From Candidatus Bathyarchaeia archaeon (GTDB taxonomy: Archaea; Thermoproteota; Bathyarchaeia; Bathyarchaeales; DTEX01): 64,000 nucleotides of DNA. A model generated the notes under the pieces. That model was not told the origin of the DNA and ran no database searches. It saw nothing but the letters and a program-made list of their open reading frames with translations. The stretch is taken from assembly GCA_038868075.1 (NCBI GenBank), contig JAWBXB010000002.1:73769-137768 (forward strand). The letters run 5' to 3'. How positions within the stretch are numbered: the first letter of the stretch is position 1; every line of letters begins with the position of its first letter. Position numbers and translations under genes: made by a program. This document shows positions 19,427 through 19,634 of the stretch, piece after piece.

Positions 19427-19511
19427 AATCAGTAGTCAGATAAAGCTTAGAAGTTAAAATCTTAAATACTTACAGCGTGTCTATAATTAGTGTATTGGAG
19501 GTTGAAAGAGA

Positions 19512-19634
19512 ATGAAATGTCCAGTCTGTGGTCAAGAGGCAAATCTTGTGAAAGAGTGGGATTTAGGTCCTAGGGTTCACATAAAACTTTATGAGCACTG
19601 CGGCAAGAAGTTTCGTGAATATATAAAGAAGTAG
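19512..19634 (+). CDS. Small Cren7-like zinc-finger protein, 40 aa (absent from the ORF track)
   Basis: [46 protein letters not shown] RBS at about 19497 and a TATA-like CTTAAATA at about 19461. Confidence 0.8.
   Translation: [40 protein letters not shown]

Follow-up and report, generated by a model that had tools for sequence, protein, structure and literature searches.

The window analysed here, a 64,000-nucleotide stretch of DNA from a Candidatus Bathyarchaeia archaeon, carries at positions 19,512 to 19,634 of its forward strand a gene for a protein of 40 residues, which by homology is very probably a member of the Cren7 family of chromatin proteins, linked to it via cysteine-bearing intermediates. 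The explanation that best accounts for the whole, and which we hold with moderate confidence, is that the gene encodes a miniaturised, zinc-keeping protein of the Cren7 family that would bend DNA and stabilise the duplex. The gene, its signals and its neighbours are as follows, in window coordinates:

16515-18341, reverse strand: transketolase, divergently oriented
18506-19426, forward strand: thioredoxin reductase
19461-19468, forward strand: archaeal TATA box CTTAAATA, 44-51 nt before the ATG, read in the sequence; putative promoter
19498-19503, forward strand: Shine-Dalgarno sequence GGAGGT, 8 nt 5' of the ATG
19512-19634, forward strand: gene for the miniature zinc-ribbon protein assigned to the Cren7 family, 40 aa, stop codon included (from the ORF list, conservation, pN/pS and AlphaFold2)
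19518-19529, forward strand: first putative zinc knuckle, C3-P4-V5-C6, followed by G7; C3, P4, C6 and G7 conserved without exception in all 26 family members
19551-19565, forward strand: K14-E15-W16-D17-L18, counterpart in the alignments of Cren7 K24-V25-W26-A27-L28; K14, W16 and L18 invariant
19596-19601, forward strand: shrunken second putative zinc knuckle, H29-C30; C30 invariant, position 29 only Cys or His, CC in most relatives
19652-19656, forward strand: run of five T, likely archaeal transcription terminator, 18 nt past the TAG stop
19731-20597, forward strand: multi-pass membrane protein of 288 aa
20877-22640, forward strand: ATP-dependent DNA ligase

Relationship to the Cren7 family

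The standard models of the family do not detect the protein. The Pfam Cren7 profile (PF11520, gathering threshold 25 bits) gave no match to it even at E <= 10, and the ORF went undetected when its own genome (E <= 1) and 40 relatives were scanned with that profile. Searches of the protein against Pfam and NCBIfam gave only sub-threshold generic zinc-ribbon matches; within Pfam there was no match to Sul7d (PF02294) and none to DUF5679 (PF18930) at E <= 10, the latter also being absent from the 25 families listed for a scan of 65 relatives, those that the most members matched. A fucose lectin found with phmmer against the PDB was a spurious repeat match and was discarded.

An alignment and profile of 26 members of the 40-residue family (A1) returned, in an hmmsearch of 1.84 billion representative proteins, merely 77 matches, so that A1 does not behave as a generic zinc-ribbon detector. 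Five of the 65 small proteins among these matches reach the Pfam Cren7 profile at E <= 0.01, and two exceed its 25-bit cut-off (29.5 and 25.7 bits), with Cren7 the best among all 24,736 Pfam families for both. The one scoring 29.5 bits, P0056, matches A1 with E = 3.6e-5 and belongs to a cluster that has NCBI entries named 'chromatin protein Cren7'. A six-frame search with A1 across 301 Thermoproteota genomes recovered small cysteine-bearing ORFs in other classes at per-genome E-values of 6e-6 to 1e-7; these ORFs from outside the Bathyarchaeia score 59.5, 39.7 and 38.3 bits on the Pfam Cren7 profile (cut-off 25).

Natural intermediates, among them a protein of 48 residues, join the PKxxKG loop of Cren7 with the same EHCGKKFRE knuckle as the window protein; L056 and L059 are intermediates that carry this loop. 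The 48-residue protein shares 60% identity with the window protein (E = 3e-17) and 43%, over 30 residues, with Cren7 of S. solfataricus (E = 4e-5). Cren7 chains are the five best PDB matches of its AlphaFold2 model (pLDDT 91.1; probability 0.98, TM 0.62/0.55, 38% identity, E = 0.14), which may be biased because its input alignment contained Cren7 sequences. Iterative jackhmmer searches started from S. solfataricus Cren7 were run against the collected sequences together with all 28,952 six-frame ORFs of the window's own genome as decoys, with E-values that are relative to about 29,000 sequences. The cysteine-bearing types were recovered in round 1 and the 40-residue ORF in round 2, with E = 1.3e-6; no other ORF of the genome was included, the nearest being the transcription factor S ribbon, excluded at E = 0.003. 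Comparison of profiles by hhalign against 25 canonical Cren7 sequences gave P = 9.8e-4 for A1 and 3.9e-4 for a set of 65 wider members, with a probability of only 22-35%; the scores, 19.8 and 25.3, were reached by none of 200 column-shuffled controls, whose maxima are 18.1 and 19.6, nor by the reversed control.

The predicted structure of the 40-residue protein itself gave no such signal in Foldseek, which has no statistical power at this size: all E-values were above 0.1 and about 1 throughout, and Cren7 was not within the top 50 PDB matches. The only complete small proteins to rank among the best matches were Sac7d and its engineered derivatives, with an rmsd of 1.0 Å over 28 residues, and the generic three-strand meanders of flavoenzymes score as well as Sac7d. 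An earlier note on this DNA had taken the protein for a Cren7 homologue and had suggested HHpred and Foldseek as a check. The homology is upheld by the profile matches to Pfam-positive Cren7 proteins, the intermediates, the decoy-controlled jackhmmer searches, hhalign and the fold matches, with Pfam Cren7 itself missing the protein; as to the check, the profile comparison came out in favour, beating every shuffled control, and the Foldseek comparison of the 40-residue model yielded no significant match.

Cysteine-bearing forms of Cren7 have a published history. Kaur, Iyer, Subramanian and Aravind (2018, PMC5906684) derived Cren7 and Sul7 from a zinc ribbon, described Cren7 orthologues of Crenarchaeota and Bathyarchaeota whose beta1/beta2 and beta4/beta5 turns bear two to four cysteines, and reported Cren7 fusions and a paralogous family, Cren7Znr. 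Since their description included Bathyarchaeota, the cysteine-bearing kind of Cren7 was already known; our literature search combining Cren7 with Bathyarchaeia found no paper. Examples of this kind are the 51-residue KYH37633.1 and RJS75006.1, both named 'chromatin protein Cren7' by NCBI, and WP_011998075.1 of Ignicoccus hospitalis (PMC5906684). The 40-residue protein shares with them the N-terminal KCPxCG knuckle, the K-x-W-x-L, V-x-I-x-L and G-K-x-F-R strands, and a small, basic, single-domain and monocistronic character, and they are found by A1. It differs from them in lacking the beta3-beta4 loop (PKxxKGP, about seven residues), in a second knuckle that is CC or HC in the 40-residue family where theirs is CPxC, in a length of 40 residues against 47-56, and in lying below the Pfam Cren7 threshold with only a hypothetical label at NCBI. 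It is the shortest version of Cren7 in this analysis.

Canonical Cren7 (Sso6901, PF11520; PDB 2JTM, 3KXT, 3LWH and 6A2I) is likewise basic, and the three-stranded sheet of the 40-residue protein corresponds to its strands beta3-beta5. Canonical Cren7 is an abundant protein on double-stranded DNA, whose melting temperature it raises and whose negative supercoils it constrains. It has no zinc ligands, and it possesses a Lys-rich N-terminal beta1, a long flexible beta3-beta4 loop and a PDDYP tail in a total of 60 residues; it occurs in Crenarchaeota that lack histones, whereas the genome under study has a histone and Alba. Sul7d (Sac7d, Sso7d; 1WTV and others) is the best small-protein structural match, at 25% identity and E of about 1, and is a resemblance only: in both, the loop that joins strands one and two of the DNA-binding sheet is short and a K-x-W-x-[VL]-G motif is present, but Sul7d has no zinc site, carries a C-terminal helix, is restricted to Sulfolobales and gave no sequence-level match to the 40-residue protein. 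Cren7Znr (e.g. APE_2454.1; PMC5906684) resembles it in having a zinc ribbon, of Cys4 type, with a K-x-W strand. Complete genomes of other Thermoproteota classes hold two 60-residue proteins of the pattern CPYC...CxxC with a conserved tail GREFTLRVGPRKK, L066 (G448:C1:1487250-1487575) and L072 (G350:C1:1022902-1023227), which A1 matches weakly and which may be members of the Cren7Znr family of Kaur et al. 2018; a Pfam scan of L066 matched no family. The tail forms a C-terminal extension in the probable Cren7Znr member L066, while the 40-residue protein ends directly after beta5.

Relatives of the gene lie in Candidatus Bathyarchaeia, many of them from hot-spring MAG series. Several families of the class (f1, f10, f25 and f31) have the tight 40-residue type, which A1 matches at E < 1e-20; looser relatives of it appear with A1 in 139 of the 301 genomes searched from the class. 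With a 51-residue Cys4 Cren7 as query, matches appear in 168 of the 301, with up to seven copies in some; the window's own family (f1) has at most one match per genome, and in the window's own genome the 40-residue ORF is the sole Cren7-like ORF. In some Bathyarchaeia the Cren7-like zinc ribbon is also found as a domain of large proteins, matched for example at G100:C34:6856-6987 and G233:C29:15415-15546 inside ORFs of 360-450 aa; these may be the fusions of Cren7 to FtsZ described by Kaur et al. 2018 (PMC5906684). In other Bathyarchaeia families, Cys4 Cren7-like genes stand in tandem pairs (L045, 1244-1656, reverse strand, and L046, 1299-1656, reverse strand; genomes G045 and G049); the L045 pair consists of a 56-aa and a 71-aa gene, the latter with a loop insert. 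Because the tandem genes co-occur with a 40-residue-type gene in G045, the types are paralogues there.

Putative zinc site and DNA-facing residues, and possible function

AlphaFold2 run on A1 predicts a three-stranded antiparallel sheet with high confidence (pLDDT 93.7; strands 11-17, 22-29 and 32-39), together with a one-residue bridge 2-9 around the CPxCG knuckle, where Cren7, a five-stranded SH3-like beta-barrel, has its beta1/beta2 hairpin; in the alignments, too, the first knuckle coincides with the beta1/beta2 turn of Cren7. Residues K2, C3, P4, C6, G7, K14, E15, W16, L18, Y27, C30, G31, K32, R35, E36 and Y37 are invariant in A1. Of the two knuckles that give a zinc ribbon its four ligands for one zinc, the N-terminal CPxCG is represented by the invariant C3, P4, C6 and G7; the second, ordinarily a CxxC that provides ligands 3 and 4, is reduced to H29-C30 in the window protein. 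Position 29 is His in the window protein and some relatives, Cys in the remainder and nothing else, and the Cys/His swap is seen in several lineages; as only these two residues occur and the swap needs two base changes, a metal ligand is suggested at this position. The forms taken by the second knuckle in a set of 116 wider relatives are CxxC (18), CxC (12), CC (52) and HC (18). The earlier note had picked out the CPVC...HC residues as potential zinc ligands, and they are indeed in place, with C3, C6 and C30 invariant and position 29 confined to Cys or His. The protein is predicted to bind zinc, though adjacent residues 29 and 30 serving as ligands of one zinc would be an unusual geometry.

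The joint alignment pairs Cren7 K24, W26, L28 and P30 with K14, W16, L18 and P20 of the 40-residue protein, V36, I38, L40 and F41 with V22, I24, L26 and Y27, and G47, K48, F50 and R51 with G31, K32, F34 and R35. Among the counterparts of the DNA interface, which we take to include W26, K14, W16, L18 and R35 are invariant in the 26 members, and V22 is nearly so. In Cren7, intercalation of L28, which has V36 next to it, introduces a kink of about 50 degrees into the DNA (PMC5042384). Of the lysines, K24 and K31 make contact with DNA, K42 and K48 are placed at the interface edge, and the K42Q substitution lowers affinity about 9-fold (PMC8927968). K42 aligns with Glu28 of the 40-residue protein, and the beta3-beta4 loop (PKGRKG, with K31 and R33) is deleted, G19-P20-R21 being all that remains. 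Also lost are the Lys-rich strand at the N-terminus of Cren7 and the PDDYP tail at its C-terminus. The deletion of the loop need not abolish DNA binding.

On the mechanism that we propose, C3, C6, C30 and residue 29 (His here, Cys in most relatives) would hold one Zn2+, which would staple the N-terminal knuckle to the beta4-beta5 turn and substitute for the hydrophobic core that zinc-free Cren7 has gained. The exposed face of the sheet (K14, W16, L18, V22, I24, L26 and R35) would lie in the DNA minor groove, where L18 could wedge between base pairs and kink the DNA as L28 of Cren7 does; zinc-site geometry and side-chain facing are here argued from strand alternation alone. The footprint is probably shorter and more Sul7d-like than that of Cren7, because the protein has neither the Lys-rich N-terminal strand nor the beta3-beta4 loop that carries K31 and R33. 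Acting beside one histone and two Alba proteins, the protein would be a small, sequence-unspecific DNA bender and duplex stabiliser. For such an architectural role on DNA, judged separately, we put the chances at somewhat better than even.

Many small archaeal zinc ribbons bind RNA or a protein partner, and the 40-residue protein may, as the less probable course, have descended from the Cren7 zinc-ribbon stock, ceased to package DNA and come to bind an RNA or protein partner in cell division, transcription or the ribosome. The loss of the DNA-contacting beta3-beta4 loop and the Glu at the position of K42 (PMC8927968) would suit such a change, as would the prediction of Kaur et al. that several cysteine-bearing relatives of Cren7 serve cell division rather than bulk chromatin (PMC5906684). 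A histone and two Alba proteins are already encoded in the genome, and in some Bathyarchaeia the up to seven paralogues and the fusions to large proteins indicate that functions have diversified. Against this stands the identity of what has been retained: the residues most important for contact between Cren7 and DNA (K24, W26, L28, V36 and R51) are precisely those that are kept, and the gene is the sole Cren7-like gene per genome in family f1. A DNA-bending role for the miniaturised Cren7-family protein is the reading that we prefer. Its boldest form is speculative and on present evidence improbable: that this is the smallest natural chromatin architectural protein, the sole Cren7-type bender in several thermophilic Bathyarchaeia families that also have histone and Alba, with a fold and a DNA-compacting activity that would rest on a zinc site (Cys3His or Cys4, some of the ligands being adjacent) and could be switchable by metal supply or oxidation.

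Conservation, expression signals and surroundings of the gene

The 40-codon ORF is a real gene under strong purifying selection. In a six-frame search of 61 related genomes, 17 of the 23 that belong to the genus have an intact frame (83-95% identity), as do 10 of the 14 from other genera of the family (65-75% identity), and none of these frames is interrupted by a stop codon. Across 18 orthologues, pN/pS is 0.098 in frame; the two alternative frames give 1.9-2.0. Codon positions 1, 2 and 3 account for 13, 8 and 37 of the variable columns. A lack of conservation had been named in the earlier note as grounds for giving up its reading; the ORF is conserved without stops across genus, family and class. 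The peptides which that note had quoted, GKKFREY and the CPVC...HC residues among them, are all found in the translation of 19512-19634 on the forward strand, and its assertion of a dedicated ribosome-binding site and TATA box is borne out by GGAGGT at 19498-19503 and CTTAAATA at 19461-19468, both conserved in the genus. Its description of the gene as missed and likely unannotated was mistaken, NCBI holding identical or near-identical 40-residue products as 'hypothetical protein' (e.g. MEM2500231.1).

The gene is monocistronic, with a TATA box and a Shine-Dalgarno sequence of its own and a T-run as its likely terminator. A box of the form CTTAAATA or like TTTAAATA lies about 45 nt upstream of the ORF in all 17 loci of the genus, and GGAGG is kept at -8 to -12 throughout these loci (n = 17) and in most loci of the family. 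In the window, the A-rich GTTAAAAT directly 5' of the TATA box is BRE-like. Oligo-T is a known termination signal of archaeal RNA polymerase, so the run of five T past the stop is likely to act as a terminator. The encoded protein is basic, with nine Lys or Arg against five Asp or Glu.

The neighbours are conserved within the genus only. In other genera they are unrelated and convergently oriented, and those named by eye are PP-loop ATPase-like, mannose-6-phosphate-isomerase-like and aminotransferase-like genes; comparison of the neighbours across genera revealed no shared operon or functional link. The downstream 288-aa membrane protein has a C-terminal CxxC...CxxC tail (CYICGQILPYDAIYCPNCGRRIS), is 44-56% identical within the genus where its flanks are about 80-88% identical, and is missing from 5 of the 17 loci. 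Upstream, thioredoxin reductase is a presence/absence polymorphism of the genus, situated between transketolase and the small gene, and looks fragmented in locus L005.

A redox-active CPxC mini-protein that partners this reductase (18506-19426) would be the reading suggested by the CPVC motif, which resembles those of thiol-disulfide oxidoreductases, and by the end of the reductase gene 85 nt upstream on the same strand. The reductase adjoins the small gene in only 5 of the 17 genus loci, with transketolase the direct neighbour in the others, and the neighbours in other genera are unrelated; as the synteny is not conserved, this reading is largely refuted. The small gene moreover has its own conserved promoter, the predicted model has no thioredoxin fold and the homology is to Cren7, and we regard a partnership with the reductase as very improbable. 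That the ORF arose by chance, or is an untranslated portion of a neighbouring transcript, is a reading of negligible probability, for which its mere 40 codons and the lack of any family-model match could be cited, and which is refuted by the substitution pattern (pN/pS 0.098, where the other frames have about 1.9) and opposed by the class-wide conservation without stops, by the confident fold prediction and by the Rfam search, which matched no family in the ORF region.

Meaning for the Cren7 family and for archaeal chromatin

The 40-residue protein adds a natural end-point to the published series from zinc ribbon to Cren7, a form in which the putative metal site is retained and the N-terminal strand and DNA-contacting loop have been trimmed while the sheet residues with which Cren7 touches DNA are invariant. 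Part of the Cren7 family is missed by the Pfam and NCBIfam models, and because these do not recognise the 40-residue type, surveys of archaeal chromatin proteins would score these Bathyarchaeia as Cren7-negative. Sac7d is the basis of affitins and nanofitins, and a Sac7d-related scaffold of 40 residues that is probably very stable could interest protein engineers.

The lineage had been expected to encode histones as well, and this proved correct: the organism belongs to the Bathyarchaeia, and its genome holds one histone-fold gene and two Alba genes (C4:68599-68784, C10:5999-6181 and C8:67172-67354). With histone, Alba and Cren7-like genes together, it encodes three classes of small DNA-binding protein. 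If the 40-residue protein does bind DNA, histone, Alba and a Cren7-type protein would be combined in one organism, which would bear on how chromatin systems have been mixed and replaced within the Thermoproteota.
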